A stretch of 64,000 nucleotides of DNA, from the IMG/VR virus record IMGVR_UViG_3300023297_000003. One strand, written 5' to 3'. The DNA comes from a virus (lineage: Duplodnaviria > Heunggongvirae > Uroviricota > Caudoviricetes). Positions 6,970 to 51,605 of the stretch are shown piece after piece (positions within the stretch are counted from its first letter, which is position 1; every line of letters begins with the position of its first letter). The notes under the pieces are model-generated. The model was given only the letters and a program-made list of their open reading frames with translations, had not been told where the DNA came from and searched no databases. The translations under genes were made by a program, and so were the position numbers.

Positions 6970-7335
6970 TTGCCAGCAGTAGCTCAAAACAGCCTTTAAT
7001 AGGGACTCTTTGCGTCGGGGAGGGGTCAAAAATCCTTGACTTGATCCTCCCTCTTCTTACTGTACTCAGCGTAAGGGCGATAGCCAAGCTCTTCAAAATG
7101 TTCTTTGGGACTTTGGGTTTGGTGGTTGGTGAGGAGAGACCTCACTGTAAAACTCAAATCGTTGAAGAACTTAGCAGTCTTAACGATTGTGAATGACCGG
7201 GAGTTCCTCGGTTACAGCCTGTGGAGAGGAAAGCTCTGGCTTGGTGCCTTTTGACCAAGTGAAACTATCCTCAGTGAAGCAGGAACCTAACGTCAGTCAA
7301 GGTTTGTCCTTGATTGAGTCAGTTTAGGAGAACGG
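6970..7335 (+). mobile_element. non-autonomous IS607-family MITE (family 2), 366 bp, no ORF
   Basis: flanked by GG (6968-69 and 7334-35); 3' ~140 nt nearly identical to 44545-44683; in-frame empty-site reconstruction; internal TTGACT-16-TACTGT promoter (7036-7063). Confidence 0.85.
7195..7335 (+). ncRNA. putative TnpB omegaRNA scaffold (family 2)
   Basis: GGTTACAGCCTGTGGAGAGGAAAGC...GAAGCAGGAACCTAAC...TTTAGGAGAACGG is shared with the 3' end of the tnpB element at 44683; 5' boundary uncertain. Confidence 0.6.
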
Positions 7336-7710
7336 TACATCAGGTCTACCATCTCAGGATGGGACAGATGTTCGTAGTGGATCTTCTCCGCCCCCTGTTC
7401 CCTCCGTTGTGGTTCCTCCCACGAATCCAAATGCACACGAAGAATCTGAGGGGTTTTGATGGACAGCGCTCGTCCGACGAACGTCTTTGCGTCCACAGTC
7501 TCCGTCAGGGCACGCTCCACCTGAACAAGACCCGTCCCGTAAATGTTAGGAATGGCCACGTCGAAGTCCCGACAGACCCGGTTGGGACTGTTCCCCTCCA
7601 CGGAAGAGAAGCCCCCGGCACGAATGACCCGTCCGTCGTCTACTGCGTCCTGAACGATTTTCTTTTCCATCCTATTTTCTCCGTTTACATTCACAAGCCA
7701 ACGACTGATA

Positions 7711-7721
7711 CTACTCTAACG
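7711..7721 (-). promoter_or_regulatory. class B promoter variant (CGTTAGAGTAG)
   Basis: upstream of the DUF4419-like start at 7670. Confidence 0.45.
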
Positions 7722-7755
7722 GGCAAGTAAACGGCACTCTTGGACAGGATAAGGA

Positions 7756-7781
7756 GATCATCGGGGTGGCGTCGAGAGTAG
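7756..7781 (+). promoter_or_regulatory. class A promoter GATCATC-N13-GAGTAG
   Basis: exact match, 20 nt upstream of ATG 7802. Confidence 0.75.
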
Positions 7782-7801
7782 ACTGAGTACGGGAGCAGAT
7801 C

Positions 7802-8509
7802 ATGCAGCGACTTCTAATAGCTTCAGATTTCCACACTGACATCAACAGGAGACTTCCCACCCTGGCCGGTGCTGATGTCCTTGTCCTTGCGGGAGACGTC
7901 GGTCAACTGGACGCTCTCGTGCTCACCATCCCACTCCTGTGTGATCTGTTCCCCCACATCGTCTACGTTGCGGGCAACCACGAGTACTACGAGTCCTCGT
8001 TTGATGCCACCCACGAGGTGCTGTCCCAACTCAGCGCCAAGTTCTCCAACTTCCACTGGCTGAACAACGGCACCGTAACCATCGAAGGTCAACGGTACGT
8101 GGGGACAACCCTGTGGTTCCCAGAAACGCCTCGGGCGTTGGGGTTCGCCCACGGTTTTACGGATTTCAAACACATCGCAGATATGTGGACCCGGTTCGGG
8201 GAGGAGAACACCAAGGCCCAGAAGTTCCTGAATAAAACGGTGCAATCAGACGACATTGTGGTAACCCATCATGCACCGACCCCGAAGAGCATTCACCCAC
8301 AGTACAAAATCAGCGCTGCCAACATCTTCTACGTCTGTGATATGGAACGCCTGATTGAACGGGTGCAGCCCAAGCTCTGGGTACACGGACACATGCACAC
8401 ACCCGTGGATGTGATGCTGGGGGAGACACGGGTTCTGGCGAACCCCTACGGGTACGAAAGCCGAAGGGAAACCAGGAACTTCAATCCGGACCTGATTGTA
8501 GAGACCTGA
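7802..8509 (+). CDS. calcineurin-like metallophosphoesterase
   Basis: SDFH, LAGDV, AGNHEYY, VVTHHAP, WVHGHMH motifs. Confidence 0.92.
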   Translation: MQRLLIASDFHTDINRRLPTLAGADVLVLAGDVGQLDALVLTIPLLCDLFPHIVYVAGNHEYYESSFDATHEVLSQLSAKFSNFHWLNNGTVTIEGQRYVGTTLWFPETPRALGFAHGFTDFKHIADMWTRFGEENTKAQKFLNKTVQSDDIVVTHHAPTPKSIHPQYKISAANIFYVCDMERLIERVQPKLWVHGHMHTPVDVMLGETRVLANPYGYESRRETRNFNPDLIVET

Positions 8510-8513
8510 AAAT

Positions 8514-8539
8514 GATCCTCACAGTCGACCCTGGAGTAG
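8514..8539 (+). promoter_or_regulatory. class A promoter variant (GATCCTC-N13-GAGTAG)
   Basis: one mismatch, correct spacing. Confidence 0.6.
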
Positions 8540-8744
8540 ATGGGGTGTCCTTCAACGAGGAGTTCGACTATGGAAAGGCCAGTCGTTGACTACAAGACCA
8601 TCCACACCATGGATGACACGGTGGCGCTGGACGAGGCCATCAGGGAGCACATCCAGAAGGGATGCAACCCTATGGGGAACCCCGCATGAGGGTGACTGCC
8701 GACCACCGCTACTACTACCAGACCATGGTCCTGCGGGTGAGGCG

Positions 8745-9029
8745 ATGAGTAGACACAAGGGACGGAAAGTCCTGGACTACTACCAGCGCACCATCCCCAA
8801 CTGGGACATCACCGTCTTCGGGGTCGTGATCGAGTCCCCCGACGCCGTGGATGAGGAGAGGATGGCCCAAGTTGGCCAAGGGCTTGTTTGGACCTATTCC
8901 AAAGAGTGGGCTGAAGGGAAACAGGAGATGATCTCCGTCCCCCATGCCTACGAACCCATCTCAGAGGAACAGTTCGAAGCCGCAAAGGCACGAGGTTGGA
9001 CACGGTTCCCTGTAGAGGAGAAAAAGTGA
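8745..9029 (+). CDS. hypothetical protein
   Basis: MSRHKGRKVLDYY..., GAGG RBS. Confidence 0.55.
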   Translation: MSRHKGRKVLDYYQRTIPNWDITVFGVVIESPDAVDEERMAQVGQGLVWTYSKEWAEGKQEMISVPHAYEPISEEQFEAAKARGWTRFPVEEKK

Positions 9030-10484: not shown

Positions 10485-10651
10485 TACTTGACAGCACCCG
10501 ATTTACTTACTAAAGTCTAACTATTCCTGCTTGAAACAGGAAGCTGTTACGGTAGGAAGGCTCATGCTGATTGGGTAGGAAGCTCTGGTGTGCTCAGACG
10601 TTCTGGGGACGAACACATTAAAGCTAACGATCATCCGAGAGGCGTAAAACG
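10485..10651 (+). mobile_element. truncated IS607-family MITE (family 1), right end lost
   Basis: left end GG|TACTTGACAGCACCCGATTT matches 45523; same internal deletion junction as the MITE at 33833..34181; similarity ends at GGCGTAAAACG. Confidence 0.85.
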
Positions 10652-10938
10652 TGAGCGTGAACGGGGTACCCTAGTTGCCTGATGTAGTGGTAGGCCGACA
10701 ACCCCGCCAGCAAGCCACCTCCGTAGGAGTCGAGATAGAGGTGGACGGGGGGAGGGTCCACCTCGGGGTAGGCGCTGAACGTTGTGCGAAGGGACTGTGC
10801 CGCCTCCTCAACCTGGCGACACAGGTCAGCAACTGACTCGTGGCTCACGTCCTTGAAGAAGTAGACCCTGTTCCCCGCTGGGGGAGTACTTAGGCCACCC
10901 ATCGGCATAAGTTTCCTGTTTGCCCTCTCCCGAGCCAC
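10624..10938 (-). pseudogene. clpP: ClpP-like protease, 5' half only
   Basis: VHLYLDSYGGGLLAGLSAYHYIRQLGYPVHAHV matches the ClpP YINSPGG region; truncated at 10651 by the MITE before the catalytic Ser. Confidence 0.7.
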
Positions 10939-11769: not shown

Positions 11770-12095
11770 TTCCGTGCCTCGACATCGGTGTCGGTAAGTT
11801 GCTGGAGAGTCGCTATAAAGGCGTCGGCAGCGGCCAACGCCGACTTCCGTTCTTGAGTAGTCAGACCGCCCTTGGTGCCGTTACCGCTTGCACGAAAAAG
11901 ATCTGTCTGTTCCTTCGGCATCGGCGGCGTTTCGAACTTCGCTGCTGCTTGCCCAGCCAGCCTCCAAACTTGTTCTGTTGGCATTGTCCACGAGCCATCG
12001 GCATTGAACGTCCCGCAATTGGCGAACATAAACCCCATCCAGTCAGCCCAGTTGTTGTGGATTACCTTCGCCACATCATCTCTGTTCATCCTCAT
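11766..12095 (-). CDS. hypothetical protein
   Basis: 109-aa ORF with GAGGAG RBS. Confidence 0.6.
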   Translation of the reverse strand: MRMNRDDVAKVIHNNWADWMGFMFANCGTFNADGSWTMPTEQVWRLAGQAAAKFETPPMPKEQTDLFRASGNGTKGGLTTQERKSALAAADAFIATLQQLTDTDVEARK

Positions 12096-12204
12096 TCTCC
12101 TCGTTCCTTATCGTCGGACAGCGCCCCCGATGTGCGCTACGAATCCGCCGGTCTGCCGCATTGTCAGTGATAAGAATGCTCCTGGAACAGTTCAAACGAG
12201 GCTT

Positions 12205-12387
12205 TCACTGACCTTCCGGCCAGGTGAAAGCCTCAGCCTTGTCCCGGAGTACGAGCATTGCATCCTTGAACCGGATCCGAAAACCCTCCCACCCGCTAAG
12301 GCGCAAAGGTCTTGCAGGAACCCATTTGCCGTTGATCTCAGCCTGGACTTTATTCCAGCTCTGTAAGCTCTTCAATGACCACGCCAT
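12205..12387 (-). CDS. hypothetical protein
   Basis: 60-aa ORF with GGAGGAG RBS. Confidence 0.6.
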   Translation of the reverse strand: MAWSLKSLQSWNKVQAEINGKWVPARPLRLSGWEGFRIRFKDAMLVLRDKAEAFTWPEGQ

Positions 12388-12396
12388 GATCTCCTC

Positions 12397-12855
12397 CTAC
12401 TCGCCACACAAAGGATAGGGGAAGCATCCTGATAGGGCACAGCCCATCGACGGGGGCCGTACCTTTGGAAACAGTCCCGTCATCAATTCAGCGAAACTGT
12501 TCGGTTCGATCTCAGGGATTTCCAGCGTCTCCACACCCTTGGGTTCCGACGTCAGGTACGAGAGCACCGCCACCGTGATCGGGGTTGTATCCCAGATGCA
12601 GAAGACCGTCTGGTTGACATCCACGTCCTCGGCCCGAGAAGCAGCGTCAAGGGCCACGACAGCCCGTTCCAACTCCTGCTTGACCCGGTACGCCTTCTCA
12701 GGCCAAGAGTCCCACTCGGTGCCGACAGGGACACGAGGAGCAGTGATCCGCTTCCGGGTTATCGTCTCCACCCTCACACCATCCCACAACAGGCTGGGAG
12801 TCCCCTGATCCACGTTTACGATGGGAGCCCCCAAAAAAGACACGTCAAAATGCAT
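12397..12855 (-). CDS. hypothetical protein
   Basis: MHFDVSFLG start behind GGAGGGG RBS and a class B promoter. Confidence 0.55.
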   Translation of the reverse strand: MHFDVSFLGAPIVNVDQGTPSLLWDGVRVETITRKRITAPRVPVGTEWDSWPEKAYRVKQELERAVVALDAASRAEDVDVNQTVFCIWDTTPITVAVLSYLTSEPKGVETLEIPEIEPNSFAELMTGLFPKVRPPSMGCALSGCFPYPLCGE

Positions 12856-12879
12856 CACAATCCCCCTCCACACGGAGGT

Positions 12880-12890
12880 CTACTCCAACG
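12880..12890 (-). promoter_or_regulatory. class B promoter CGTTGGAGTAG
   Basis: exact 11-mer, 24 nt upstream of ATG 12855. Confidence 0.55.
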
Positions 12891-12895
12891 AGGAC

Positions 12896-13360
12896 TCAAC
12901 GGCTCCGATTAAACAATGCCCTAGACATCCGCTTCCCCACAGCACCTTTCCATTCCGTGGGGATCCGTTCTATCGAACCCAGCTTGAACTCGGTCTCCCC
13001 AATAGGCTCCTTGACCGAACGAGCAAAGGCCCCGACGTCAAGACCCCAGACATTCGGCTTCACAAGCTGAGGGAGCGTCATGACGACCACAATGATCTGA
13101 TTGATCTTGGGTTTCGTCCCGTTGTGAGTCGAAACGTATGTTACATTTTCCACACCACGCTGGATCTGTCCCTTGAAATACCTAGCAGCTTGCCGGGGAT
13201 TTGTTGTTCGGACCTCCAGCATTCGTCTTGGGAGACGGATCCCCCTCCTATCATACGGGTGTGGACTGACGGAACCCCAGTCCCAAAGGAAAACAGTCGT
13301 TCCTTTCGGAACAGCACAAAAGGGCGTTCCGTTAAGCTGGAAGTCGATCAGATAACGCAT
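12896..13360 (-). CDS. hypothetical protein
   Basis: 154-aa ORF. Confidence 0.55.
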   Translation of the reverse strand: MRYLIDFQLNGTPFCAVPKGTTVFLWDWGSVSPHPYDRRGIRLPRRMLEVRTTNPRQAARYFKGQIQRGVENVTYVSTHNGTKPKINQIIVVVMTLPQLVKPNVWGLDVGAFARSVKEPIGETEFKLGSIERIPTEWKGAVGKRMSRALFNRSR

Positions 13361-15281: not shown

Positions 15282-15392
15282 GACGGGATCGAACACAGAT
15301 AAAGGGGTATTTGAACAGCAGCCAAAAACCCACCTGAACCTCAGTTTTTCTCGGTGATTCCTTTATAGCTTCCACATTGGTATAGTGGGGGC

Positions 15393-15593
15393 ATGAAACG
15401 AACCATTATCATCCGAGTGACCGCAACCGAGTTTAAAACGTCTGATGGACGGGTGATCCCACATTTCATTCCGTTCGATCCCGATGAGGTGCCTACCGTC
15501 GAAGAGTTCCAACGGCAGTACAATAGGTGGCACAAGATCTTTGAAGATCAAGGTTTGATGCTTCCTGCTTCTGGAGACGAAAATGCCGACTAA
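15393..15593 (+). CDS. 66-aa cargo ORF inside the IS607 element
   Basis: ATG 6 nt after extended -10 TGGTATAGT (leaderless geometry); overlaps the tnpA start. Confidence 0.6.
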   Translation: MKRTIIIRVTATEFKTSDGRVIPHFIPFDPDEVPTVEEFQRQYNRWHKIFEDQGLMLPASGDENAD

Positions 15594-16212
15594 CTGTCTC
15601 CTAGCCCTTACTAAGGCAGCAGAAGCCCTTGGTGTTCATAGGAACACGCTTCGGGATTGGGCAGATGAAGGCAAGTTCCCCCACGTTCGCACCGTGGGTG
15701 GGCACCGCCGATTCAAGCAATCAGATATTGACACCTTGCGAGGGGATCTTCCTGTCGACTCCAGTACGGAACGAGTTGCCATCTACTGCCGAGTCAGCAG
15801 TCACGACCAGAAGAAGTCGGGCGATCTTGAGCGTCAAGTCGGGCGAGTTACGACACACAGCGTCACGAAACAGTACAAGCTAGTTGAGGTGCTTCAAGAC
15901 GTGGGTTCAGGTATGTCCGACACCCGACCCAAACTCCAAAAGTTGTTCAAACTGGTCAACACCCATGAGATCGATCGGGTGGTTGTCGAACACAAAGACC
16001 GTCTGAGTCGTTTCGGGTTCAACCTGATCGAAGCTTACTTCAGCAGCCATGATGTTACCATCGAGTGGGTACAAGAAATGTTGGGCAAGTCCTACGAGGA
16101 GGAGTTGGTCGAGGACATTTTGACGCTCATGTCATCATTTTCAGCAAAAATTTACGGGAAGCGTTCGGCTGACCGACGTAGAGCGAAAAAAGAAGCGGAG
16201 GTGGTAGGATGA
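15583..16212 (+). CDS. tnpA: IS607 transposase (MerR-HTH + serine recombinase)
   Basis: KAAEALGVHRNTLRDW HTH; AIYCRVSS, DVGSG, VVEHKDRLSRFG. Confidence 0.95.
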   Translation: MPTNCLLALTKAAEALGVHRNTLRDWADEGKFPHVRTVGGHRRFKQSDIDTLRGDLPVDSSTERVAIYCRVSSHDQKKSGDLERQVGRVTTHSVTKQYKLVEVLQDVGSGMSDTRPKLQKLFKLVNTHEIDRVVVEHKDRLSRFGFNLIEAYFSSHDVTIEWVQEMLGKSYEEELVEDILTLMSSFSAKIYGKRSADRRRAKKEAEVVG

Positions 16213-17624
16213 AGTGTCGTATCTTTCGACTTCATAAGGATACCAACCGTTCCAAGGTTGAAAAACTGGAGGCACTCCATCAGGAATACGTCAGCTACGT
16301 CCGCATTTGCGTGCAGACGATGCTCGACAACCGGATCTACAACCTTCCGAAATCAGCAAAGCAAACGTTCTTCTCACGGGCTGCGAACCTTACCAGCCAA
16401 ATTGAAAAGAACGCTAGAGACCATGCCGTTCAAATTGTAGATACCTGGGCAAAGGGTGTCTATGCCCGTAAGCTGAAGCCCACCATTACCAATTTCAGAC
16501 ACGACGGTACGATCACAAACGAGGATGTCAAAGCTCTCTGTACCATCGGGTTGAAGCAGATCAGCAAACCTTGGAAGTTCATCACCCAAGACCACTTGGA
16601 TGCCTATCACACTCTGTTGGATACTTACGGAGGTAACCCACCAGTCGTAAGAGATAAAATTCCGATAAGACTGTCCGAAATGACAGCCCGGCTTGAAAAC
16701 CCAAGCAAGGCAGTCACAGCAGACTTTTGGTTGCGGGTTTCTTCGTTAGAAGCTCGCAAATCAGTTTGGTTACCTCTCGTTGGAAATCCTTACGTCCAAC
16801 AAGCTGACCAAGTCAACAAGGGGCTATCAGCCCGTAAAACCAGGAGGGGTTTCTGGAGATTTGAAGCCGTCAGTAAAGATGAATGGGTTGTTCCTGAGGC
16901 ACAAGAAGGTTGGTCGAAGTTGGGTGTTGACGTGGGTTTGAACGTTCTAGCAGCTACTTCCGATGGGGTTCTTTACGGTGGATTTGTCAAACCTAAGTTC
17001 GACAAATTGTACGCTCGGATCAAGACATTACGGGCGAATCGACAACGACAAGGTCTTAAGGAAAACAGTCCTCGGCTTGATCGATTAGAGTCCCGTCTAA
17101 CAGGGCTCGTGAAGACTGAGACTGGTCGTGTCGTAAACACCTTTGTAAGGAAACATCCTGAAACTATATTCGTAGTAGAGGATCTCGATCTGTCTGGTTG
17201 TAGGGGTCAGAAGCGTTTTGCTTATCGTGCGTTACAGACCAATCTGGAGAGGAAAGCTTCTATCGAAAAGGTGAACCCTGCATATACGAGTCAAGAGTGT
17301 CCTTCTTGTGATTACGTTCATCGTGGTAATAGGAGATCAATTAGTTTCCAATGCCGCTGTTGTGGCAGGGAGGCTCACGCTGATTGGGTAGGAAGTTCTG
17401 GTGTGCTCAGACGTTCTGGGGACGAACACATTAGGACTGGTGATCACCCTCGTAGCGTAAAACGAGTGCTAAGAGAGCGATTCCGTCTTCGACGGACCAG
17501 TTCCTTGGGATTCGGGAGGTTAGAGCAACCTTCGTCCTCGCCCTTACCGTTGGGCAGGAGGCTTACTACCGTTGAATTAGGTTTACCTGACGGCGGCACA
17601 GCTTCAAACTTGATGCTCACCTAG
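16209..17624 (+). CDS. tnpB: TnpB RNA-guided endonuclease
   Basis: RuvC-I GVDVG, RuvC-II VVEDL, Zn finger CPSC/CRCC, RuvC-III HAD; all catalytic residues present. Confidence 0.92.
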   Translation: MKCRIFRLHKDTNRSKVEKLEALHQEYVSYVRICVQTMLDNRIYNLPKSAKQTFFSRAANLTSQIEKNARDHAVQIVDTWAKGVYARKLKPTITNFRHDGTITNEDVKALCTIGLKQISKPWKFITQDHLDAYHTLLDTYGGNPPVVRDKIPIRLSEMTARLENPSKAVTADFWLRVSSLEARKSVWLPLVGNPYVQQADQVNKGLSARKTRRGFWRFEAVSKDEWVVPEAQEGWSKLGVDVGLNVLAATSDGVLYGGFVKPKFDKLYARIKTLRANRQRQGLKENSPRLDRLESRLTGLVKTETGRVVNTFVRKHPETIFVVEDLDLSGCRGQKRFAYRALQTNLERKASIEKVNPAYTSQECPSCDYVHRGNRRSISFQCRCCGREAHADWVGSSGVLRRSGDEHIRTGDHPRSVKRVLRERFRLRRTSSLGFGRLEQPSSSPLPLGRRLTTVELGLPDGGTASNLMLT

Positions 17625-17648
17625 ATTTAGGTAGGTTTTAAGGAACGG
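17360..17648 (+). ncRNA. putative omegaRNA (family 1) overlapping the tnpB 3' end
   Basis: segment retained in the protein-free MITE at 33833..34181; conserved CCTTACCGTTGGGC..GGAGG.TTACTACCG and GGCACAGC.TCAAACTTGATGC. Confidence 0.6.
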
Positions 17649-34602: not shown

Positions 34603-34627
34603 CTACTCTGTGGGTCAGCAGATGGTC
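34603..34627 (-). promoter_or_regulatory. class A promoter variant (GACCATC-N12-GAGTAG)
   Basis: one mismatch, spacer 12. Confidence 0.5.
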
Positions 34628-36340: not shown

Positions 36341-36366
36341 CTACTCTGTGGGTCGCTGAGATGATC
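36341..36366 (-). promoter_or_regulatory. class A promoter GATCATC-N13-GAGTAG
   Basis: exact match; no long ORF directly downstream. Confidence 0.65.
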
Positions 36367-36485
36367 CCCCACCGGGATAACCCACAGAATCTAGGTCAGC
36401 ACCCCACAGTCAAGTACTTTCCAGTACTCTTTGCCCAGATCTTTTTGTGCAGATTACAACGAAAGTACTGGACTTTTCCAGTGCT

Positions 36486-37863: not shown

Positions 37864-38325
37864 TTAGGTGGGCTGGCTGGGGTGTTCTATTCCTAACGCC
37901 TTTTGTGTAGGTGGGTCTAACCGGATGGTGTTGCTGTAGGGTGTGTCATAGTCCTCGTAGGCCCGCCATGGGCCTTCCCACTGCTGGTTTCCTATGGTCA
38001 GCGTGGCATTGAACTTTTCATTGACATAGCTGGGCCATGTGCCGGGGCACAGACGTGTCCTCAGGTGGATGCGATGGTGGTCTCCGTCTTTACTCGTGGT
38101 ATGACTCAGGACGGGGACATTGCGCCCCTGGGTCTTCAGCGTCCCGATCCTTGGGTTTGGGTAGGTTGTAACGACCGAGAGTCGGGGCAGGTCTTTGCCT
38201 TGGTCGATCCAGTTGATGTAGGGTCGCAGTTCGTCGTGGTAGGAGAGCCACCCCTCGTATCTGGTCAGCATCTTCCGGGCCATGTGCCAACCTTCCCAGT
38301 TGTCCCGGTAGGTGTTCTCCCACAC
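37864..38325 (-). CDS. hypothetical protein
   Basis: 153-aa ORF following the repeat protein. Confidence 0.55.
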   Translation of the reverse strand: MWENTYRDNWEGWHMARKMLTRYEGWLSYHDELRPYINWIDQGKDLPRLSVVTTYPNPRIGTLKTQGRNVPVLSHTTSKDGDHHRIHLRTRLCPGTWPSYVNEKFNATLTIGNQQWEGPWRAYEDYDTPYSNTIRLDPPTQKALGIEHPSQPT

Positions 38326-38333
38326 GACGACTG

Positions 38334-40031: not shown

Positions 40032-40053
40032 CGTGTTCCTCCTACTGGATCAT

Positions 40054-40079
40054 CTACTCCCTGGCGGCAGCAGATGATC
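40054..40079 (-). promoter_or_regulatory. class A promoter GATCATC-N13-GAGTAG
   Basis: exact match, 22 nt upstream of ATG 40031. Confidence 0.78.
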
Positions 40080-40093
40080 CAGTGTTGAATCTG

Positions 40094-42685: not shown

Positions 42686-42705
42686 AGGGCACCTCCTGAC
42701 ATCCT

Positions 42706-42731
42706 CTACTCCCTGACGGTGTCAGATGATC
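42706..42731 (-). promoter_or_regulatory. class A promoter GATCATC-N13-GAGTAG
   Basis: exact match, 20 nt upstream of ATG 42685. Confidence 0.78.
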
Positions 42732-42777
42732 CAACAGTTCCGACTGGGGTAGAGTGATCTGACAAAAGGAGACCCCA

Positions 42778-43626
42778 ATGCGTTACCCACCGAATGCTGT
42801 ATTTCCTCCAGGGTTCGATACCCCTCCCCGAGTCGAGTCCGCCCCACGGGCGTCCATGAAGTACGTGAACATCCGGGCAAGCGGTGTAGCCGTCCCGATC
42901 CTTGAGAAGGTACAGGGCACTCCAGCGTGGGCCATCGGGGATGACGGTGTGGGGGTGATTCAGATCCCAGAGCCGAACAAGCGGGTACTCCTTCCGATGT
43001 TCACCATCATTGTGACGGACAAGGTGTTCCCCAGCCCCCGGAACATTGTGGCCTCAGTCGGAACTCTCCTCCGGTCCAAGGTGGACGACCTGATGAAGGT
43101 CCAGTCGGGTTGTGACCTGATGGTCATCGCCTTTGAGACGTTGGAAGCCCCCAAGAGAGATGGTAGTGAAGGAACCGTTTGGAGCCTGCAGTGTGGGGTC
43201 GGGTGTCTTCAGAACGATGACGATCTCTATGGTATCGCCACGGACGAGCTGCAGATCGGGGGGGGGGTAGAGTTGCCTGACTGCTGGGACAGGAAGGTCA
43301 CGGAGATCAAGTTGTGGGAGGCTCTCCGGGCGTTAGAAGGGACCTTGTTTGGCCTGGGGGGTGAGCCGCTTGATCAATTTGACCCGTTTGAACAACAGCG
43401 TCCCCTCCGGGGGTTTGATGAGGTGGGGTTCCAGCGGCTGCGGGAGCCCCAGATGGTGATTGGACCAGAAGCGCTGAAGGGGCACATCGGAATACAGCAT
43501 GCCCAGGACCATAGGCGGCGTTGCCATTGGGCCTTCACACTCGCACCCCCAAACCTGACTTCGGAAAATGGATGCGCTGGCAAAGTTCATAGCTTGGTCC
43601 TGGGTGGCGAACACGAAAAGACCTGA
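42778..43626 (+). CDS. hypothetical protein, paralog of 57160..57684
   Basis: WSLQCGVG/WSMVCGIG and VELPDCWD/MELPDTWD; the 3' ~294 nt overlap the convergent gene. Confidence 0.6.
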   Translation: MRYPPNAVFPPGFDTPPRVESAPRASMKYVNIRASGVAVPILEKVQGTPAWAIGDDGVGVIQIPEPNKRVLLPMFTIIVTDKVFPSPRNIVASVGTLLRSKVDDLMKVQSGCDLMVIAFETLEAPKRDGSEGTVWSLQCGVGCLQNDDDLYGIATDELQIGGGVELPDCWDRKVTEIKLWEALRALEGTLFGLGGEPLDQFDPFEQQRPLRGFDEVGFQRLREPQMVIGPEALKGHIGIQHAQDHRRRCHWAFTLAPPNLTSENGCAGKVHSLVLGGEHEKT

Positions 43627-43941
43627 GCCAGGGAATGCGCTCATCCATTTCTCGGGGGTGTAGCTGTAGGCCCAGGCTGAGTACTGGGAAAAGGATTCTA
43701 AGTCACCCCGGAGAGTACTGACGACGACTTTGTATGCCGTACAGGAGGCTTCCTGGCGAGTGAGGGCCTCCTTTGCGGCTCGTTCCAGGGCCTTCTGATC
43801 AGCTTCCCGCTGGGTCTTGTCCCGGAACTCCTGGACATCCTTGTCCGTGAGGAACCAGGAGGGTAGCCCGAAAGAGGCGCTCAGGGTCCGTTTCCAGTTG
43901 GCCCGTTGCTCGGACGTGAGCTTGCCGTCGTCGGTGGTCAT
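43333..43941 (-). CDS. AYKVV-family hypothetical protein
   Basis: AYKVV...GLFVF...P.GTLLFKRVKL shared with 47816..48211 and 48208..48603. Confidence 0.7.
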   Translation of the reverse strand: MTTDDGKLTSEQRANWKRTLSASFGLPSWFLTDKDVQEFRDKTQREADQKALERAAKEALTRQEASCTAYKVVVSTLRGDLESFSQYSAWAYSYTPEKWMSAFPGSGLFVFATQDQAMNFASASIFRSQVWGCECEGPMATPPMVLGMLYSDVPLQRFWSNHHLGLPQPLEPHLIKPPEGTLLFKRVKLIKRLTPQAKQGPF

Positions 43942-43994
43942 TCCGTGATTTCGCACATGGTAATGTTGTCCTTGGCCTCGAATTTCTGTGCCTG

Positions 43995-44675
43995 TTGATA
44001 TTTCAGTTTTACACCGATCAGGGTGGCCAGTGTTGCAATGTTTTTTCTGATGGTGAATTGTCGACCAGCTCTCAGGGAGCTACCAGGCAGGAAGGCCTGG
44101 GTTGGGTCATTCACGTATGCAGAAAGAAGAAGGGATCGAGGAATCGGGGGAAAGCAAAGCATCGTCTCGCCCGCCAACATTATCGAATTTCCTGCGTTCG
44201 TAAGGATGCGCTTCATAAGGCCACCACTGCGATAGCCAAACGGTGTGTGATTGTTGGGATCGAGTCCTTGAATGTGTCAGGGATGATGAAAAACCATTGT
44301 CTGGCTCGAAGTTTATCTGACGCAACGATGGGAAACTTCCTTCGTTGTCTGAAGTACAAGGTAGCTTGGCACGGTGGGACAATCGTAGAGGCAGATCGAT
44401 GGTTCCCCTCGTCCAAGATGTGTTCGGTTTGTGGTGAGGTTAAGCACAAATTAACCTTGAGGGATCGTGTTTTCCATTGTGATTCCTGTGGACACATACA
44501 GGATCGTGATGAGAACGCAGCTTGTAATTTAAGAAATTTGGCCGTCAGTTCGACGGTTACAGCCTGTGGAGAGGAAAGCGCTGGCTTGGTTCATCTGAAC
44601 CAAGTGAAACTATCCTCAATGAAGCAGGAACCTAACCCTGATGGGGGGCCTGTGTCCTCGATTGGGTCAGTTTAG
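43995..44675 (+). pseudogene. tnpB: TnpB C-terminal fragment (RuvC-I missing)
   Basis: KKKGSRNRGKAK, GIESLNVSGM, FPSSKMCSVCG, DRDENAACNL; no N-terminal half. Confidence 0.85.
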
Positions 44676-44683
44676 GAGAACGG
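44024..44683 (+). mobile_element. internally deleted IS607/IS605-type element (family 2)
   Basis: right end TTTAGGAGAACGG identical to the MITE at 7335; left end tentative (GG|TGGCCAG vs GG|TTGCCAG at 6970). Confidence 0.7.
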
Positions 44684-44696
44684 TCCGTAAACGTTC

Positions 44697-45047
44697 CTAC
44701 CTGTAGATGAGCTTCCCGAGCGCCGTGATGACCACCCGTAGGACAGCCCACCCGATCACCAGAGCGACCGTCAGCAGGGACGTCTTCCAGGCCCAGTTGA
44801 AGGACACCACCAGATAGTCTACGAAGAAGGCCCATGTGACCCCGAATTGTTCCACCCATTGCCCAAAAGCGAAGAGGACCCAGGCCAAAGCCAGCACGGA
44901 GAACAGGACCCACTGCCAAGTGGCCCAGCCTTTGTGTTTGGGTCGGCGTGTTCCGCTGGGCCTCCGAGGGGCATAGCCCTCTAAGTCGTCATCTCGGAGG
45001 TGTTCACCGTTCCGAAATCTCTCATCGTGGTCGTGCATGTCTCCCAT
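44697..45047 (-). CDS. membrane protein
   Basis: two to three hydrophobic segments; AGGAGGT RBS; class A promoter upstream. Confidence 0.65.
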   Translation of the reverse strand: MGDMHDHDERFRNGEHLRDDDLEGYAPRRPSGTRRPKHKGWATWQWVLFSVLALAWVLFAFGQWVEQFGVTWAFFVDYLVVSFNWAWKTSLLTVALVIGWAVLRVVITALGKLIYR

Positions 45048-45066
45048 TGTGACCTCCTACCCTCAG

Positions 45067-45092
45067 CTACTCTGGTGGTGTCACAGATGATC
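45067..45092 (-). promoter_or_regulatory. class A promoter GATCATC-N13-GAGTAG
   Basis: exact match, 19 nt upstream of ATG 45047. Confidence 0.78.
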
Positions 45093-45121
45093 CCCTGTTG
45101 GGACTTACAGGCACAAAGGAG

Positions 45122-45358
45122 CTATTTCCGCATGTCTTCAGGGTGCTCGTCGGGGTCGAAGCGACGTTTGCCGTCCTTCGGGCCAGACCAGGGGTCGTAT
45201 AGCGTTTTCAGGTCCGGGATGTTGTCCCCGTCCCCGTCAGTGAGAAGGCGCTGTGTGGCCCCTCTACGGACACGACGGTTCATATACCGCTTCCAGAGTT
45301 TCTCTGAATTACAACAAACGATAGTCTGTTTCGGGGTCTTCTTCCGTGAGCGTGACAT
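45122..45358 (-). CDS. small basic hypothetical protein
   Basis: MSRSRKKTP...SEK.WK...RR.RR...DPWSGPKDGK. Confidence 0.65.
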   Translation of the reverse strand: MSRSRKKTPKQTIVCCNSEKLWKRYMNRRVRRGATQRLLTDGDGDNIPDLKTLYDPWSGPKDGKRRFDPDEHPEDMRK

Positions 45359-45522
45359 GATGCCCTCCTCCTACATAAGGATTGTGCAGGAAGATCGTTC
45401 TAAAGTCAAGGGCTGGGCTGTGTATTGACTTCTGACATCAGACCTCCTATGCTACCATGTCCCGACAGTCTTTACACATTCACACGGGCGTGGAGTCGTT
45501 CTCCACGTCTTCCTTGTAAGGG

Positions 45523-47033
45523 TACTTGACAGCACCCGATTTAGTTGCTAAAATCTAACTATTCCTGTTTGAAACAGGAATCAGAGGTTAGTAAATGAAG
45601 TGTCGCATCTTTCGACTTCACAAGGACACCAACCCGTCCAAAATCGATAAGTTGGAAGCCCTGCACAAAGTCTACGTCAAGTATGTCCGTATCTGCGTAC
45701 AAACAATGCTCGACCAGCGAACCCACAATCTCCCGAAGTCCGCCAAACAGACGTTCTTTCCACGAGCTACCAACCTTACATCCCAAATCGAAAAGATCGC
45801 ACGAGACCACGCCATCCAGATCGTGAGCGCTTGGGCCAAGGCCACTTACGCTCGCAAATTGAAGCCGACTATCACCAATCTCAAACACGATGGTACCCTT
45901 ACCGAACAAGACGCCAAAGCACTCTACACCATTGGATTAAAATCCATCAGTAAGCCATGGAAATTCATTACCCAAGACCACCTCGACGCCTACCACGTTC
46001 TGCTGGACACATACGGAGGCAATAAGCCTATCGTAAGGGACAACCTGCCCATGATGTTGTCAGAAATGACGGCTCGATTGGAAGACACAACTAAAGCTCC
46101 TCTCGGGGATTTCTGGCTGAGGGTGTCTTCGTTAGAACCTCGCAAGTCCGTCTGGTTACCTCTCGTTGGGAATCCTTACATCCAGCAGGCTGACCAAGTT
46201 AGCAAAGGTGTTTCAGCCCGCAAGACCAAGCGAGGCTTTTGGCGTTTTGAGGCGGTCAGCAAGGACGAATGGATTGTTCCTGAAGCACAGGAAGGTTGGC
46301 CTAAGTTGGGTGTGGACGTTGGTTTGAATGTGCTCGCAGCTACATCAGATGGCGTGACCTATGGTGAACACGTCAAACTCAAGTTCGATAAACTCTACGC
46401 TCGTGTCAGGAATCTCAGAGCAAATCGCCAACGACAGGACTTAAAGGACAACAGTCCAAAGTTGGACCACCTTGAGAGCAAACTGAGTGGGTTGATCAAA
46501 ACAGAAACGGGTCGTGTAGTAAACACCCTTATCGTTCGTCATCCTAAGACAGTGTTCGTGGTTGAGGATCTTGATCTTCGAGGTTGTCGGGGTCAAAAGA
46601 GGTTTGCTTACAGGGCGTTACAAGTCAACTTGGAAAGGAAGACTCCGGTTGAGAAGGTGAACCCAGCTTATACTTCGCAGGAGTGTCCTTCTTGTGGTTA
46701 TGTTCATCGAGGAAACCGAAATTCAACAAGGTTCCATTGCCGCTCGTGCGGCAGGAAAGCTCATGCTGATTGGGTGGGAAGTTCTGGTGTGCTCAGACGT
46801 TCTGGAGACGAACACATCGGTACTAACGATCATCCGAGAGGCGTAAAACGAGTGCTGAGAGAGCGATTCCGTGTTAAGCGGACCAGTTCCTTGGGATTCG
46901 GGCGATTAGAGCGGTCGTCAATCGAGCCCTTACCGTTGGGCCGGAGGTTTACTACCGTTGGATCAGATTCGTCTGGCAGCGGCACAGCTTCAAACTTGAT
47001 GCCTGTTACATTCCAGCAGGTTTTAAGGAACGG
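45523..47033 (+). mobile_element. non-autonomous IS607-family element (family 1, tnpB only)
   Basis: GG|TACTTGACA-17-TAAAAT left end, hairpin ATTCCTGTTT-G-AAACAGGAAT, right end GGTTTTAAGGAACGG. Confidence 0.92.
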
Positions 47034-47061
47034 TGATGTGCTCATCCACAAGGGGCTGTAG
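45595..47061 (+). CDS. tnpB: TnpB endonuclease, close paralog of 16209..17624
   Basis: GVDVG / VVEDL / HAD intact; ORF runs 28 nt past the right end. Confidence 0.92.
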   Translation: MKCRIFRLHKDTNPSKIDKLEALHKVYVKYVRICVQTMLDQRTHNLPKSAKQTFFPRATNLTSQIEKIARDHAIQIVSAWAKATYARKLKPTITNLKHDGTLTEQDAKALYTIGLKSISKPWKFITQDHLDAYHVLLDTYGGNKPIVRDNLPMMLSEMTARLEDTTKAPLGDFWLRVSSLEPRKSVWLPLVGNPYIQQADQVSKGVSARKTKRGFWRFEAVSKDEWIVPEAQEGWPKLGVDVGLNVLAATSDGVTYGEHVKLKFDKLYARVRNLRANRQRQDLKDNSPKLDHLESKLSGLIKTETGRVVNTLIVRHPKTVFVVEDLDLRGCRGQKRFAYRALQVNLERKTPVEKVNPAYTSQECPSCGYVHRGNRNSTRFHCRSCGRKAHADWVGSSGVLRRSGDEHIGTNDHPRGVKRVLRERFRVKRTSSLGFGRLERSSIEPLPLGRRFTTVGSDSSGSGTASNLMPVTFQQVLRNGDVLIHKGL

Positions 47062-47340
47062 GATTTTGATGATTTCCTTTTTGGCATCAGCATAGGCCAG
47101 GGCTTTGTTGACCGTCTCGGCGGGAAGCTGGCAGTGCCCCACGACCTTGGTGTCGGGTGCCTCCTTCAGGTCGAAGCCGGTGAGTATGTACAGCCTGTCC
47201 TTGTGAACGGTGATTGCGAGGTTGTCCAACTCGGGCACAATGAAACGGATGACGGTAGTCATCATCCCGTGAATCCAGCCCGAGTCCCCGTCCGAGACCG
47301 TTTGTTCGACGATGATCGTTTCGTGACTTTTCATTGTCAT
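47023..47340 (-). CDS. hypothetical protein, C-terminus clipped by IS insertion
   Basis: stop codon TAA lies inside the IS right end. Confidence 0.55.
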   Translation of the reverse strand: MTMKSHETIIVEQTVSDGDSGWIHGMMTTVIRFIVPELDNLAITVHKDRLYILTGFDLKEAPDTKVVGHCQLPAETVNKALAYADAKKEIIKILQPLVDEHITVP

Positions 47341-47819
47341 CCTCCAGGTTTGTGTGTCCGCCGAAGAGCGGCGAGTTCTATTCGTACCGAATAATAGTGG
47401 ACGAGCAGCGCCACGTAGATGAAATCTACAGCTAGGGCTAACATCGGTGGCAAGATGGTCCACGCCCGGATGCCCATGTAGCCCTCGTAGGTCTTTCGGA
47501 CGGACTTCTCGTGGGCTACACGGACCTCCTCGGGGTCAGCGTCCTCCTTCCAGTGTGTCCCATGTCCGCTGTTGAACCAGCCGGGGGTCGGGTAGGTCGC
47601 TGCGGGACGGGCACAACCGTGGTCGTCAGGCACGCTGACCACGTGGTTTGCAAACCAATCGTACAACTCAGAGGACATATCCTCTATGGCCATTGTCGCT
47701 TCTTCGTCACCCACGCTGCAGTCCCCGATCCGACCTGTCATCCAGGCAACAAGGGATCGCTCGAAGTTGCCCGAGTACTGTTCCGTGTCCACAACGAAGA
47801 CGTGCGTGTAGTTGATCAT
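47337..47819 (-). CDS. hypothetical protein (start MINYTHV)
   Basis: ATGA overlap with the upstream gene. Confidence 0.6.
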   Translation of the reverse strand: MINYTHVFVVDTEQYSGNFERSLVAWMTGRIGDCSVGDEEATMAIEDMSSELYDWFANHVVSVPDDHGCARPAATYPTPGWFNSGHGTHWKEDADPEEVRVAHEKSVRKTYEGYMGIRAWTILPPMLALAVDFIYVALLVHYYSVRIELAALRRTHKPGG

Positions 47820-48211
47820 CTTCGCATCCTTCTCAGAAGCATCACCCGGTCGTACAGTGCCGTTCCGCAGGGTGTGTTCAAGAGCCAGGGCCACTTCGGG
47901 TGATCCGGGGTGAGCCAGAACTCCTGTAACAGGATTGATCTTTTCGTAAGGGGCATGATCTGAGGAGGCACGAACCTTGGTTTGGCAACCTTGCACCGCC
48001 AGATTTCGATGCTCTGTTTACACCCATGTGAGTTCTTGGAAAAAATCCGTGCTGCTGGCAAACTTTTGAACACGAACAAGCCGCCCGTTTTCGCTTTGGC
48101 CCATTCGTCAGGTTTGTACTCCATCTGCCAGTCAGGGTTGTTAATAACGACCGAAAGGCGTTTCCTCCACCAGAGGTGACCTGTGACCCGGACGACCTTG
48201 TAAGCAATCAT
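47816..48211 (-). CDS. AYKVV-family hypothetical protein
   Basis: MIAYKVV...GGLFVF...IWRC. Confidence 0.7.
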   Translation of the reverse strand: MIAYKVVRVTGHLWWRKRLSVVINNPDWQMEYKPDEWAKAKTGGLFVFKSLPAARIFSKNSHGCKQSIEIWRCKVAKPRFVPPQIMPLTKRSILLQEFWLTPDHPKWPWLLNTPCGTALYDRVMLLRRMRR

Positions 48212-48603
48212 GCTGCTTCCTTTTGGGCCGGGTTGGGCATCTTTTGGGTGAGCTTGACCCGTTGAAACAGCAGCGTACCCTTGGGGACGGGCATCAGGGC
48301 GTGGCCGTATGTGCCCCCCCAGAAGCACTCAAAGTCCGCTGCTGTACATAAAATTGACATGTAGGGGATGCTCATGACAGTGAGGCATCGGTCCTCTACC
48401 TCACACTCCCAGATCTCGGGCATCCGAAAGTCGTTGGCCTGAGCGAAGACAGCAGCGTTGGTGTAGGTGTCGAATACGAAGAGACCCCCCGAGCGAGCCT
48501 CGGCCCATTTCTTCACTGGGTAAAAGGTCTGCCACCCAGGGACACCCATGAAGAGGCTCACTCGTTTGTCCCCGTGGCGTTGGACGACCTTGTACGCTTT
48601 CAC
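48208..48603 (-). CDS. AYKVV-family hypothetical protein
   Basis: MKAYKVV...GGLFVF...IWECEVE...PKGTLLFQRVKL. Confidence 0.7.
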   Translation of the reverse strand: MKAYKVVQRHGDKRVSLFMGVPGWQTFYPVKKWAEARSGGLFVFDTYTNAAVFAQANDFRMPEIWECEVEDRCLTVMSIPYMSILCTAADFECFWGGTYGHALMPVPKGTLLFQRVKLTQKMPNPAQKEAA

Positions 48604-48953
48604 TAGAACCTCCCCGGATGATTCCAGGCTTTGCAGACGTTGTCATATTGTGTGGCCAGCTTGTTCCGCTCGCCCTGACCGAACTTGATCAGGCGTGCCC
48701 GCATGCGCTTGCGATACTTGGCCCAGAGCACCCTGTTGGCCATCGCAGGGCCGAGCAGATCCCCGAACTCATCCTCCGCAGCGTCCAGGAGACGCTGGAT
48801 CTCCCGCTCCCGACTGTACCTCTCACGTTTGGGTCGGCCCACGGGGCACCTCCTGTAATAGGGGTTCAAGTTCCGAGGCCATCCATCCGAAGTTTTCCCA
48901 AAGCCCAAAAATGTCGCCCATGTCAGTGGCTTGATCGTGTTTGACCAGGGCAC
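48603..48953 (-). CDS. basic hypothetical protein
   Basis: 116-aa Arg-rich ORF. Confidence 0.5.
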   Translation of the reverse strand: MPWSNTIKPLTWATFLGFGKTSDGWPRNLNPYYRRCPVGRPKRERYSREREIQRLLDAAEDEFGDLLGPAMANRVLWAKYRKRMRARLIKFGQGERNKLATQYDNVCKAWNHPGRF

Positions 48954-49110
48954 CGCCTCGCTCCACGGAGATGACGGTTCCTACACGGCAAGGAGGGCCG
49001 TCTACGCCTTTCCTGAGCCGGACCCGTTGTTTGACCCAAAGTTTCATGCCGTGTCTCGCTCACGTTTCCGTTCCTGGCCCCACAGCAGCATGGAGCATCC
49101 GTTACTCCCT

Positions 49111-49136
49111 CTACTCGGCTGGTGCCCTGAATGATC
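49111..49136 (-). promoter_or_regulatory. class A promoter variant (GATCATT-N13-GAGTAG)
   Basis: one mismatch, correct spacing. Confidence 0.6.
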
Positions 49137-49829
49137 TCTCCAGTTCTGTGGTTTGTTGTTCGAGGTGCATGCTTTTCCTAGTGCCAGCCCATCGGTGTCG
49201 CTCCTTCCCGCCGGGCTTCCCCCGGCACGGGTCTGCAATCAATACGGCAGTCTAGTTGCCTCATGTTCGGGGTGTAGACCACGTCCTCCATGAACTCGTC
49301 CAGGTGACGGGTCGCTTCTAGGTAGTCTTGGGCTGAGGTTCCTGCTTCGGCCACGGCGAGGTGGAAGGCACCCTGGAAGAGTGAAATCTCGGTGCAAGCG
49401 TAGGACCGGACAAGGTGTGAGTCGTTCCATCGGGAGCCACACTCGTAGCTCCCGATGGAAAAATGTCAGGAAGCTTCTCAGGAGGCTTCTTAGCGGGGCG
49501 TCACAGAACGGGCACTTTGGGTGCAGGGTCCACATCGAAGTTGATTCAGTCATCCAGTCCCCTCTTGGTAGTTTTTGGCCTTCTCCAGGGCTTCGCTCAG
49601 GAAGCCATCACAGATGATCCCCTCGTTAGCCAAACGGCCTCCCTCGGCCAGTCCGATGAGGTAGGTGGTTCGTCCCCCAGCCTTCATTCTGACCTCCTGG
49701 ACGATGACCTGAATGGGCTGGTTGCTCAGGTTGCTTTCTTCCTTCCCAAACTGGCAATGGACGCACCGGAACTCGACGCCCCGGACGGTCTCGGTGTGTT
49801 GTCCCTGACAGTGCGAGCACGGGCGCAGG

Positions 49830-51605
49830 ACGAAAGCATTATAAAAGTTCCTTGACTTTTGGCACAATCGGGCCTATGTTGTCCGTATGAGGGATGAAAA
49901 ACCACTTCGAGTTCGTGCGTCGGTGGCAGCCAAACTCCTTGGTCTTCAAGGAGTAGCTCTTCGTAGAAGAGCCGCCAAGGGAGAAATACCTGCTATCCGG
50001 TCCGACACTGGACGCTGGTTTATCCCCACATGGTGGGTCGAAGAACAGGCAGGAGTGACCCCGAAGACGACAGAGTGTCGGTGCGCTATCTACGCAAGGG
50101 AATCTTCATCTGAGAACAAGGCAGCACTGGCTTCGCAAGTTGATGGGCTCCGTCGGTATGCTACAGCAAAAGGCTGGCAAATTGTTCAGGTGGTCACAGA
50201 AATCGGCTCTGGCATTAACGACGAGCGACGAAAACTCCACCGGCTTCTGGCTGCTAAGGATTTCGATGTGCTTCTTGTAGAGCACAAAGACAGGCTCACT
50301 CGATTCGGTTTCCGCTGGTTCGTAGCCCTTGCGCCGTTTCGGATCGAAGTCGTCAACGTCGCTGAAGACAAGACCTCCGATCTTATGGAAGACCTCGTGG
50401 CCATCATAACGTCCTTCTGTGCTCGTCTTTACGGGCAGCGACGAGGCAGGAAGAAGACAGAAGCAGCAATCCAAGCGCTGGAGAAGAAAAAGTAGATGCG
50501 TAAGGCGCACAAGACCTTCTCTGTCCCTACTATGCGACGCTCCAGTCGCATCTTCATCAACGATCTGAACACAGGAAAGCGGGACGAACTTGTAGATTTT
50601 CTGCGATTGTGCCACGACACCACGCAGTACTTTGTAGATCTCTTTTGGCAACGAAAGGACTTCTCGGCTACTCTCGCAGACCTCCCTACAGTACATCGAG
50701 GACGAGACAGGTTCAAAATCACGACCCGACTTGCTCAAGCCCTTGCCAAACAAGCGAAGGAAACGGTCCGATCTGCCCACGCCAACAAGCACAGGAAACC
50801 TAGTCTTCGTAGACACACAGCCACACTGTGCTCGCATTTCGTAACCGTTTCGGAGTTCGATGGGGCATTCGATTACGCTATCAAACTGATCGGCTCTGGA
50901 GCCCCCCGAGTGGTCATTCCTACAAAGAGCACCGCACACATCAACAAGATGCTCAGTAACGGCTGGAAGATCAGCAAGTCTATTCGGCTCGGTCGTAGAA
51001 ACGACGATCTCTACATAGACCTCTTGCTGGAGAAGCCCAAAGCCCCCAAGCGGAAGATCGGAAAAATCCTCGGGATGGATTCCAACTACAAGGCTGGTCT
51101 TGTCTTCTCTGATGGCCAACAGATCGCAGATGAACCATATGCCCTTATCCAACAATTTGGACGTCGCAGGAAGCACACAAGAACCTATATCAAATCGGTG
51201 GTCGGTCACGCCCTCAAGTCTCTTGATTTGAGTGGTGTCCAAGAGCTGTGCATCGAGGACCTGAAACATGTGAAACGTGGTACACGGGGAAAGTTTCCTC
51301 GTCGGTTTAATAGGCGGTTGTCTCATTGGCTTTATGCCTATACGGCGGATCTCATTGAACGGAAATGTGAGGAAGAGGGGGTCCGGCTGGAACGGAAGAA
51401 CCCCTGGAAAACCTCGCAGTTCTGTCGAGTATGCCGTAGATGGGACAGGCGAAATCGGAGAGGGGACAAGTTCAAGTGTGTGCATTGTGGGCATTCCGAA
51501 CATGCCGACCTCAATGCTGCCAAGAACTTGGAGCTTCTTGGGTTGGCGGGAGTCTATGGTCTCCGTTTACTACCAAATCCTCTGCCGGTTTATGCCGGTT
51601 CTGGG
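49830..51605 (+). mobile_element. IS607-family element (family 3, autonomous)
   Basis: GG core at 49828-29 and 51604-05 fixed by in-frame empty site; TTGACT-17-TATGTT promoter 6 nt before the tnpA ATG. Confidence 0.92.
49887..50495 (+). CDS. tnpA: IS607 transposase (HTH + serine recombinase)
   Basis: AIYARESS, EIGSG, LLVEHKDRLTRFG, EDLVAIITSFCARLYGQR. Confidence 0.95.
   Translation: MRDEKPLRVRASVAAKLLGLQGVALRRRAAKGEIPAIRSDTGRWFIPTWWVEEQAGVTPKTTECRCAIYARESSSENKAALASQVDGLRRYATAKGWQIVQVVTEIGSGINDERRKLHRLLAAKDFDVLLVEHKDRLTRFGFRWFVALAPFRIEVVNVAEDKTSDLMEDLVAIITSFCARLYGQRRGRKKTEAAIQALEKKK

Follow-up and report, generated by a model that had tools for sequence, protein, structure and literature searches.

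The 64,000-nucleotide stretch analyzed here, referred to as the window, corresponds to bases 86975–150974 of a 188,175-bp IMG/VR virus record (G000) that is rated 36% complete. Exact-protein look-ups matched the window's proteins to salt-lake metagenome contigs with lengths of 528,260 and 521,674 bp, and the host of the elements described below is a ~528-kb salt-lake phage carrying at least four families of IS607/TnpB insertion sequences (IS). Three of these families are represented in the window (Table 1). They comprise IS_A and a family-3 element, which encode both the transposase TnpA and the nuclease TnpB, a family-1 copy without tnpA (IS_B), two family-2 copies (F2a and F2b), and short family-1 derivatives without protein genes, here called mini elements, of which MITE1 is complete. 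A first-pass annotation had counted seven insertions in three families. The repeats are real, but the network is larger, with seven TnpB-like genes and five family-1 mini elements in the 188-kb record. Our element counts cover this record and an abutting contig (G001).

Table 1. Positions of the IS607-type elements and associated features in the window.
Feature	Position	Strand	Contents	Guide
IS_A, autonomous family-1 IS607 element	15308–17648	+	65-aa ORF; tnpA 15583–16212; tnpB 16209–17624	
IS_A omegaRNA region	~17356–17648	+		starts at 17649
IS_B, family-1 copy without tnpA	45523–47033	+	tnpB ORF 45595–47061	starts at 47034
MITE1, complete family-1 mini element	33833–34181	−	left end, hairpin, junction, omegaRNA scaffold, right end	
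MITE1 promoter, TTGACA-17-TAAAGT	34178–34150	−	within left end	
MITE1 omegaRNA scaffold	34123–33833	−	291 nt	from 33832 downwards
Truncated family-1 mini element (stump)	10485–10651	+	left end, promoter, first ~105 nt of omegaRNA	
F2a, family-2 mini element	6970–7335	+	unique 224-nt left part, 143-nt right end	starts at 7336
F2a RAGATH-18-like motif	7218–7285	+	Rfam E 7.6e-4	
DUF4419 gene split by F2a	6060–7694	−	ORFs 7293–7694 and 6060–6899	
F2b, family-2 fragment	44115–44683	+	3' 185 tnpB codons, right end, no left end	position 44684
F2b RAGATH-18-like motif	44563–44630	+	Rfam	
Family-3 IS607 element	49830–51613	+	tnpA 49887–50495; tnpB 50496–51608; right end 51605 or 51613	

Protein and junction features support the assignment of families 1 to 3 to IS607-type TnpA/TnpB elements and their non-autonomous derivatives. 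The TnpA of IS_A contains Pfam Resolvase and helix-turn-helix domains and scores 199.5 bits against the NCBIfam IS607 transposase model NF033518 (cutoff 110), while the family-3 TnpA matches Pfam Resolvase and reaches 164.3 bits against the same model and cutoff. These scores identify both as serine recombinases of the IS607 family, and the serine motifs RVSS and RESS are present. The left flanks of the family-1 copies end in AAGGG, GAGGG, GGGGG or TGGGG, an RGGG-type sequence followed by T, and homology among the seven family-1 right ends ceases exactly after GGAACGG, with every flank beginning with T. The target had earlier been described as AGG(G)^T with a GG (the caret marks the junction), and these ends agree with that description. 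For families 1 and 2, the junctions have the form expected of IS607, namely a flank ...GGG^T, a right end ...CGG^T and no target-site duplication. Self-comparison of the record, together with the element ends, also upheld the boundaries first proposed for IS_A, IS_B and MITE1 and the guide starts of these three elements and of F2a and F2b. Between the left end of IS_A and its tnpA lies an open reading frame (ORF) of 65 amino acids (aa; 15394–15591) that overlaps the tnpA start codon.

For family 3, the predicted tnpA and tnpB were confirmed, but the right end is ambiguous. A second copy at G000 ~7640–8846 is 91% identical, with tnpA deleted in frame, and both copies extend alike for 8 nt past 51605 with the sequence TAACCATT, which contains the tnpB stop codon. 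Because this sequence is common to both copies, the right end may lie at either 51605 or 51613, and the guide proposed at 51606 is doubtful.

The three TnpBs of the window, called intact in the first-pass annotation, do keep the RuvC residues D241, E324 and D392 and both CxxC pairs, and the TNB domain of the IS_A protein scores above the Pfam cutoff. The three RuvC residues and the four zinc-finger cysteines are invariant across five TnpBs. Among the paralogues, the ratio of nonsynonymous to synonymous substitution rates (dN/dS) is 0.08–0.10 at dS values of 0.33–1.6, which argues that the nucleases are old and under purifying selection. The family-1 and family-3 TnpBs are divergent, scoring 88–89 bits against the NCBIfam guided_TnpB model (cutoff 100) over the C-terminal half only. 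The tnpB ORF of IS_B runs 28 nt beyond the right end of the element. Self-comparison of the record further revealed a third family-1 tnpB copy outside the window, IS_C, which is accompanied by tnpA. Two more TnpB-like genes in the record, at G000 77480–78751 and 163379–164809 (both on the minus strand), encode proteins of 423 and 476 aa with a TNB domain and have no adjoining tnpA.

The family-1 mini elements in this genome comprise four full-length copies (MITE1, two outside the window and one at the record start) and the stump. All five share the junction CAGGAA^GCTGTTG, which suggests that they derive from one 1.16-kb deletion in an IS_B-like copy. This deletion brings the left end and its 5' leader next to the final 291 nt of the element, fusing the left-end promoter to the omegaRNA gene, where omegaRNA denotes the TnpB guide RNA. 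The mini elements form a clade of their own, with 87–91% identity to one another and 80–86% to the IS copies, and the aligned full-length copies contain no indel longer than 2 nt despite 9–13% divergence. A scan recovered the promoter predicted for MITE1 as the sole sigma-70-like site in 33600–34400, with 10 of 12 positions matching and 0.3 sites expected by chance. Its hexamers are invariant in six independent family-1 left ends, except for one −10 base in IS_B (TTGACA at 45526–45531, 17 nt, TAAAAT at 45549–45554), and roughly half of the 17-nt spacer is variable. The promoter stands upstream of tnpB in IS_B and upstream of the omegaRNA in the mini elements. These comparisons support a description of the family-1 mini element in which the left-end promoter has been joined to an omegaRNA gene that keeps its structure.

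The stump had been described as a mini element with a right end. It ends within the omegaRNA, with the 3' half, right end and guide all absent; the corresponding site on contig L033, from the sister strain described below, carries a full-length mini element of 356 nt. The GAACGG at 10659–10664 was considered as a residual right end of the stump, and comparison with this full copy did not support it. The first bases of the 188-kb record fall within a family-1 mini element whose other half terminates two other contigs, which indicates that the assembly broke at this repeat. For annotation, this means that mini elements of such a kind interrupt assemblies. MITE1 itself lies 30 nt downstream, on the same strand, of an exact GATCATC-N13-GAGTAG motif (34236–34211), a putative phage promoter. 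Read on the opposite strand as CTACTC-N13-GATGATC, this motif occurs in 9 copies in the window (26990–63325) and in 48 exact copies in the record.

Another family-1 mini element, outside the window (G000 185645–185998; L045 646–999), lies inside a solitary type I-C CRISPR-repeat-like unit. Its reconstructed empty site reads GTCGTATCCTTTGACAAAGGG^TATGTGGATTGAAAC, and the repeat of a CRISPR array ~1 kb away (G000 ~187027–188140) is GTCGCATCCTCTAACAAAGGATGCGTGGATTGAAAC. Because the element is inserted inside the repeat-like unit, its guide begins with the 3' half of a CRISPR repeat. The array repeats differ from this guide at positions 2–3, and each is preceded by AAAGGA or AAAGGG. A guide search of the whole 188-kb record, suggested in the first-pass annotation, found no second site beyond each guide's own, apart from CRISPR repeats, to which the MITE3 guide shows near matches.

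The family-1 right ends have the properties of a guide RNA gene, with a predicted structured RNA at the 3' end of the element and homology that stops exactly at the right end. RNAalifold predicted 93 pairs across the seven right ends, 12 of them with compensatory changes. As an independent test, a structure was computed from just the three IS copies, and its fit to the four rows of mini elements was then scored. Standard pairs occupied 333 of 349 mini-element cells (95%), versus 115–170 (33–49%) when the partners were slid by 1–3 columns. Among the mini elements, 28 pairs vary; 20 of these are standard in every copy, and three are changed on both sides. One stem form, at alignment columns 214–241, is confined to the mini elements, and a C-G/U-A swap within it was recognized by eye.

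These data bear on whether the RNA is used at all. The mini elements could be plain transposons moved by TnpA, with the omegaRNA region kept for TnpA sites or still present since the copies are young, and with an RNA that TnpB never uses. Copy number and insertion polymorphism require TnpA only, and no consequence is visible in the copy that lost its guide end. Furthermore, variation is as frequent in paired as in unpaired columns (18 and 19%), and the excess of retained pairs is modest. However, the retained 291-nt right part begins exactly at the start of the covarying RNA structure, and such an account does not readily predict full-length copies so free of indels at their level of divergence, a stem form confined to the mini elements, or promoter hexamers that are conserved while the spacer drifts. 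We consider this explanation possible but unlikely. Continuing selection on the mini-element RNA structure appears to be a real but modest signal.

Family 2 presents a different situation. F2a and F2b have in common only their last ~143 nt, and a promoter proposed for this family, TTGACT-16-TACTGT, failed the consensus scan. The first-pass annotation had treated 44024–44683 as a protein-free element. Homology to the full-length family-2 tnpB starts only at 44115, and the sister-strain backbone is collinear through 44024 to 44118, which shows that F2b has no left end. With part of tnpB kept (185 codons, dN/dS 0.29) and no left end, F2b is not a mini element. The idea that 44024–44683 splits a 308-aa gene was likewise rejected: according to gene calls and the sister strain, the ORF in question overlaps a genuine gene of 282 aa, and no junction exists at 44024. 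By comparison, the family-1 mini elements have both ends, no transposase or nuclease gene and several copies, and F2a is filled or empty between strains, as expected of non-autonomous mini elements.

Three family-2 right ends, including that of a full element on contig G001, match the Rfam family RAGATH-18 (RF03064) over the full model with E-values of 3e-4 to 8e-4. Their scores of 30.0–31.5 bits lie below the gathering threshold of 44.9, and the match is a resemblance to RAGATH-18 guide RNAs, not membership. At the gathering threshold, Rfam gave no match anywhere in the window, and the right ends of families 1 and 3 had no match even at an E-value of 1. Contig G001 (L013), which overlaps the record start, encodes an intact 410-aa family-2 TnpB that scores 294 bits against guided_TnpB (cutoff 100). 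Directly upstream of this tnpB is a 47-aa ribbon-helix-helix-like ORF (G001 ~2745–2890, minus strand), preceded by a palindromic TTGACAGTCACTACAGACTGTCA site; it calls to mind the Arc repressor described in IS605 elements.

To find relatives, GenBank phages were searched with no match, an IMG/VR search with one neighboring protein returned no relative, and IMG/VR pattern scans matched solely the two contigs that abut the 188-kb record. Contigs with 92–98% identity, from metagenomes labelled salt lake, define a sister strain. A metagenome scan with the DUF4419 fragment beside F2a retrieved a 99%-identical protein on a contig without the element. The empty allele, ...GCTCGGAGGG^TACATCAGGTCTACCATCTC, equals the left flank plus the right flank exactly and is present in three assemblies (L014, L033 and L035), which proves the predicted ends of F2a to the base. 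The DUF4419 gene that is split in the window is whole in the sister strain (414 aa). IS_B is absent from the sister strain as well, where its target ...CAGGGGG^TGATGTGCTCATCCACAAGG is intact. On the left side of IS_B, ~460 nt of sister DNA, containing a 57-aa gene and part of a 110-aa gene, are missing from the window, where the left junction sits at another GG. This loss is an adjacent deletion.

In these empty alleles, the guides match at 20 of 20 positions directly after GAGGG (F2a) and GGGGG (IS_B), whereas the right ends of the elements read AACGG at this place, a plausible basis by which the filled allele may be spared. The earlier expectation of empty alleles in relatives is thus borne out for F2a and IS_B, with perfect guide matches behind a G-rich motif, but not for MITE1. 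At the MITE1 site no empty allele was found, the sole variant contig being filled and 99.98% identical, and the only protein homologue, on an 802-bp contig, is 51% identical. Since the window carries F2a and IS_B at sites that the sister strain has empty, the elements are, or recently were, active; the adjacent deletion ending at a GG and a rearrangement breakpoint within tnpA also speak for mobility. The sister strain also carries family 3 and IS_A, the latter with its tnpA cut by a rearrangement at 15765, and has a different tnpA-tnpB element at 44115. This hot spot holds a relative of the 476-aa TnpB-like gene (87% DNA identity), accompanied by genes for a TnpA and an AAA-ATPase. To the right of IS_B, 453 nt (47032–47484) are 100% identical between the main strain and sister contig L038, while the neighboring DNA is 91–97% identical; recombination or assembly mixing could account for this tract. 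Contigs of four salt-lake runs were compared with 32500–52400 as a population check, and no joint skipping an element was found. The one 1168-nt skip, at 45580–46749, reflects a mini-element copy mapped onto IS_B.

The data fit the published IS605/IS607 model (PMC10055086, PMC10690162), in which TnpA excises the element without a scar, TnpB with the flank-derived guide cleaves the empty site, and the element is restored or spread when the break is repaired from a filled copy. Applied to this phage, we find it reasonably likely that the insertions form a colony of selfish IS607-family transposons, with mini elements that are moved and loaded in trans and that home into sister genomes. The serine TnpA of the autonomous copies (IS_A and family 3) recombines at GG next to RGGG^T-type sites. 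The guide RNA for TnpB is encoded at the 3' end of the element and would presumably continue into the flank, hence matching the insertion-free allele. The family-1 mini elements would have arisen once, by the 1.16-kb deletion in a tnpB-only copy, and then spread to at least five sites, mobilized in trans by TnpA and with their RNAs loaded in trans by the family-1 TnpBs. A mini element would be restored after excision and, in mixed infections, copied to sister genomes with an empty site. The same logic may apply to F2a with the 410-aa family-2 TnpB encoded elsewhere in the genome. From the sequence, such trans use of mini-element guides is plausible. The elements would act for themselves, and sister phages would be excluded, if at all, as a side effect.

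The first-pass annotation instead proposed a multiplexed homing or anti-sibling-phage system; read as a benefit to the phage, the set would have been domesticated as a multiplexed weapon, and the gain from killing or converting sisters would maintain the guides. The sister strain, with its empty and perfectly matching targets in salt-lake-labelled metagenomes, fits this proposal, as do the insertions fixed in all 24 main-strain contigs and the position of MITE1 behind an exact putative phage promoter motif. However, phage genes are broken, with DUF4419 split and the 57-aa gene and part of the 110-aa gene lost beside IS_B. The guides are set by the landing site and not chosen, and they match their own site only. 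Moreover, copies decay, and the transposases are kept and look active, like those of ordinary selfish IS elements. The split in DUF4419, the loss of small genes and the rearrangement endpoints within elements argue for selfish spread, not domestication. The damage to phage genes weakens the weapon hypothesis, which we regard as improbable, and a selfish drive fits better.

A regulatory role was also considered, in which guide-only RNAs titrate TnpB or steer a repressor-like TnpB, as in TldR-like relatives. This proposal draws on analogy with published nuclease-dead TnpB relatives (PMC10705468), and the mini elements do outnumber the family-1 nuclease genes. Against it, the catalytic triad is kept in all TnpBs here, and no guide matches a promoter or a second site in the record. 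We judge such a role very improbable.

Several observations weigh against guide-dependent selfish spread, in addition to the equal variability of paired and unpaired columns. The insertions look fixed, with only filled sites in 24 main-strain contigs and four metagenome runs. Single copies appear to be dispensable, since one of the mini elements is decayed and F2b persists as a dead fragment. Some stem variants are common to mini elements and IS copies, and part of the stem variation may therefore have been imported by recombination. The mini-element omegaRNAs differ by 14–20% from those of any TnpB-bearing copy, so that their compatibility with the TnpBs is an assumption. F2a keeps only ~24 nt upstream of its RAGATH-18 motif, without a convincing promoter, and its RNA may accordingly be incomplete.

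The closest precedents for the mini elements are the protein-less, PATE-like (palindrome-associated transposable element) omegaRNA derivatives of IS200/IS605 in Geobacillus stearothermophilus, for which dependence on the TnpA and TnpB of other copies has been proposed (Meers et al. 2023, PMC10055086). Like PATEs, the mini elements are short and non-autonomous, with both ends and a guide-RNA gene and no protein. In contrast to PATEs, the transposase here is an IS607 serine recombinase working on double-stranded DNA at a GG, instead of a Y1 enzyme acting on hairpins; the host genome is a phage, and the mini elements form a clean promoter-to-omegaRNA fusion. The idea of guides used in trans has already been stated for IS605 PATEs (PMC10055086). 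The present analysis adds the setting (IS607, in a phage), the anatomy of the promoter fusion, the link to RAGATH-18 and the natural filled/empty polymorphism.

At the target, the elements resemble CboIStron, in which TGGG with a GG core is both the target and the target-adjacent motif (TAM) (Zedaveinyte et al. 2023, PMC10690162). Shared features include a serine TnpA, crossover at a GG, an NGGG target and scarless excision; in the phage, as in CboIStron, the target would also serve as the TAM, and TnpB would cut the empty site to restore the element. Unlike CboIStron, the elements here have no group I intron, and the family-1 and family-3 TnpBs are divergent, falling below the guided_TnpB cutoff; guide-only derivatives are not described in the consulted passages on CboIStron. 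RAGATH-18-derived right-end element RNAs (reRNAs) guide a class of IS607 TnpBs represented by ISFba1, with measured TAMs of AGGAG or GAGGG (Ren et al. 2024, PMC11061315). Family 2 is similar to this class in that its right ends carry CCUGUGGAG...AUGAAGCAGGAA ~50 nt from the element end, its TnpB has 410 aa and the F2a target follows GAGGG. It differs in its sub-threshold Rfam scores and in the location of the motif within the tnpB reading frame, as the published reRNA lies apart from the ORF. A 2026 review (PMC13565253) already lists homing into co-infecting phages as a category. As with the free-standing homing endonucleases of T-even phages and the "transposon non-restorative homing" discussed there, a nuclease would cut the element-free allele of a co-infecting relative and repair would copy the element. 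Unlike for the T-even endonucleases, recognition would rely on an RNA guide plus a TAM, with several guides per nuclease, and the system described here is known from sequence.

In its strongest form, this model envisages a pool of promoter-driven, protein-free guides that is read in trans by a few TnpBs and acts as a multiplexed drive, converting or destroying sisters at many loci. We regard this as rather improbable. If true, a division of labor like that of a CRISPR array would have arisen from transposon decay, and one guide already lies on a CRISPR-repeat-like unit. Engineered constructs have demonstrated TnpB homing in bacteria, and in nature it may drive elements between co-infecting phage genomes. 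The locus provides a natural test bed for this, combining intact nucleases, promoter-bearing guide-only elements and sister empty sites that match two guides perfectly, behind motifs in agreement with measured TAMs.

Further repeats were noted in the record. Three paralogous genes of 426–427 aa lie at G000 12075–13358 (minus), 39298–40578 (minus) and 82865–84148 (plus), with a DNA identity of 77–79%. They are not TnpB: this 427-aa repeat family was considered as a further TnpB and rejected, as the one copy scanned had no Pfam match. Within the window, a long ORF contains a tandem array of ~20 units of 12 nt (GCCCTTGCACTG-like) at 31268–31519.

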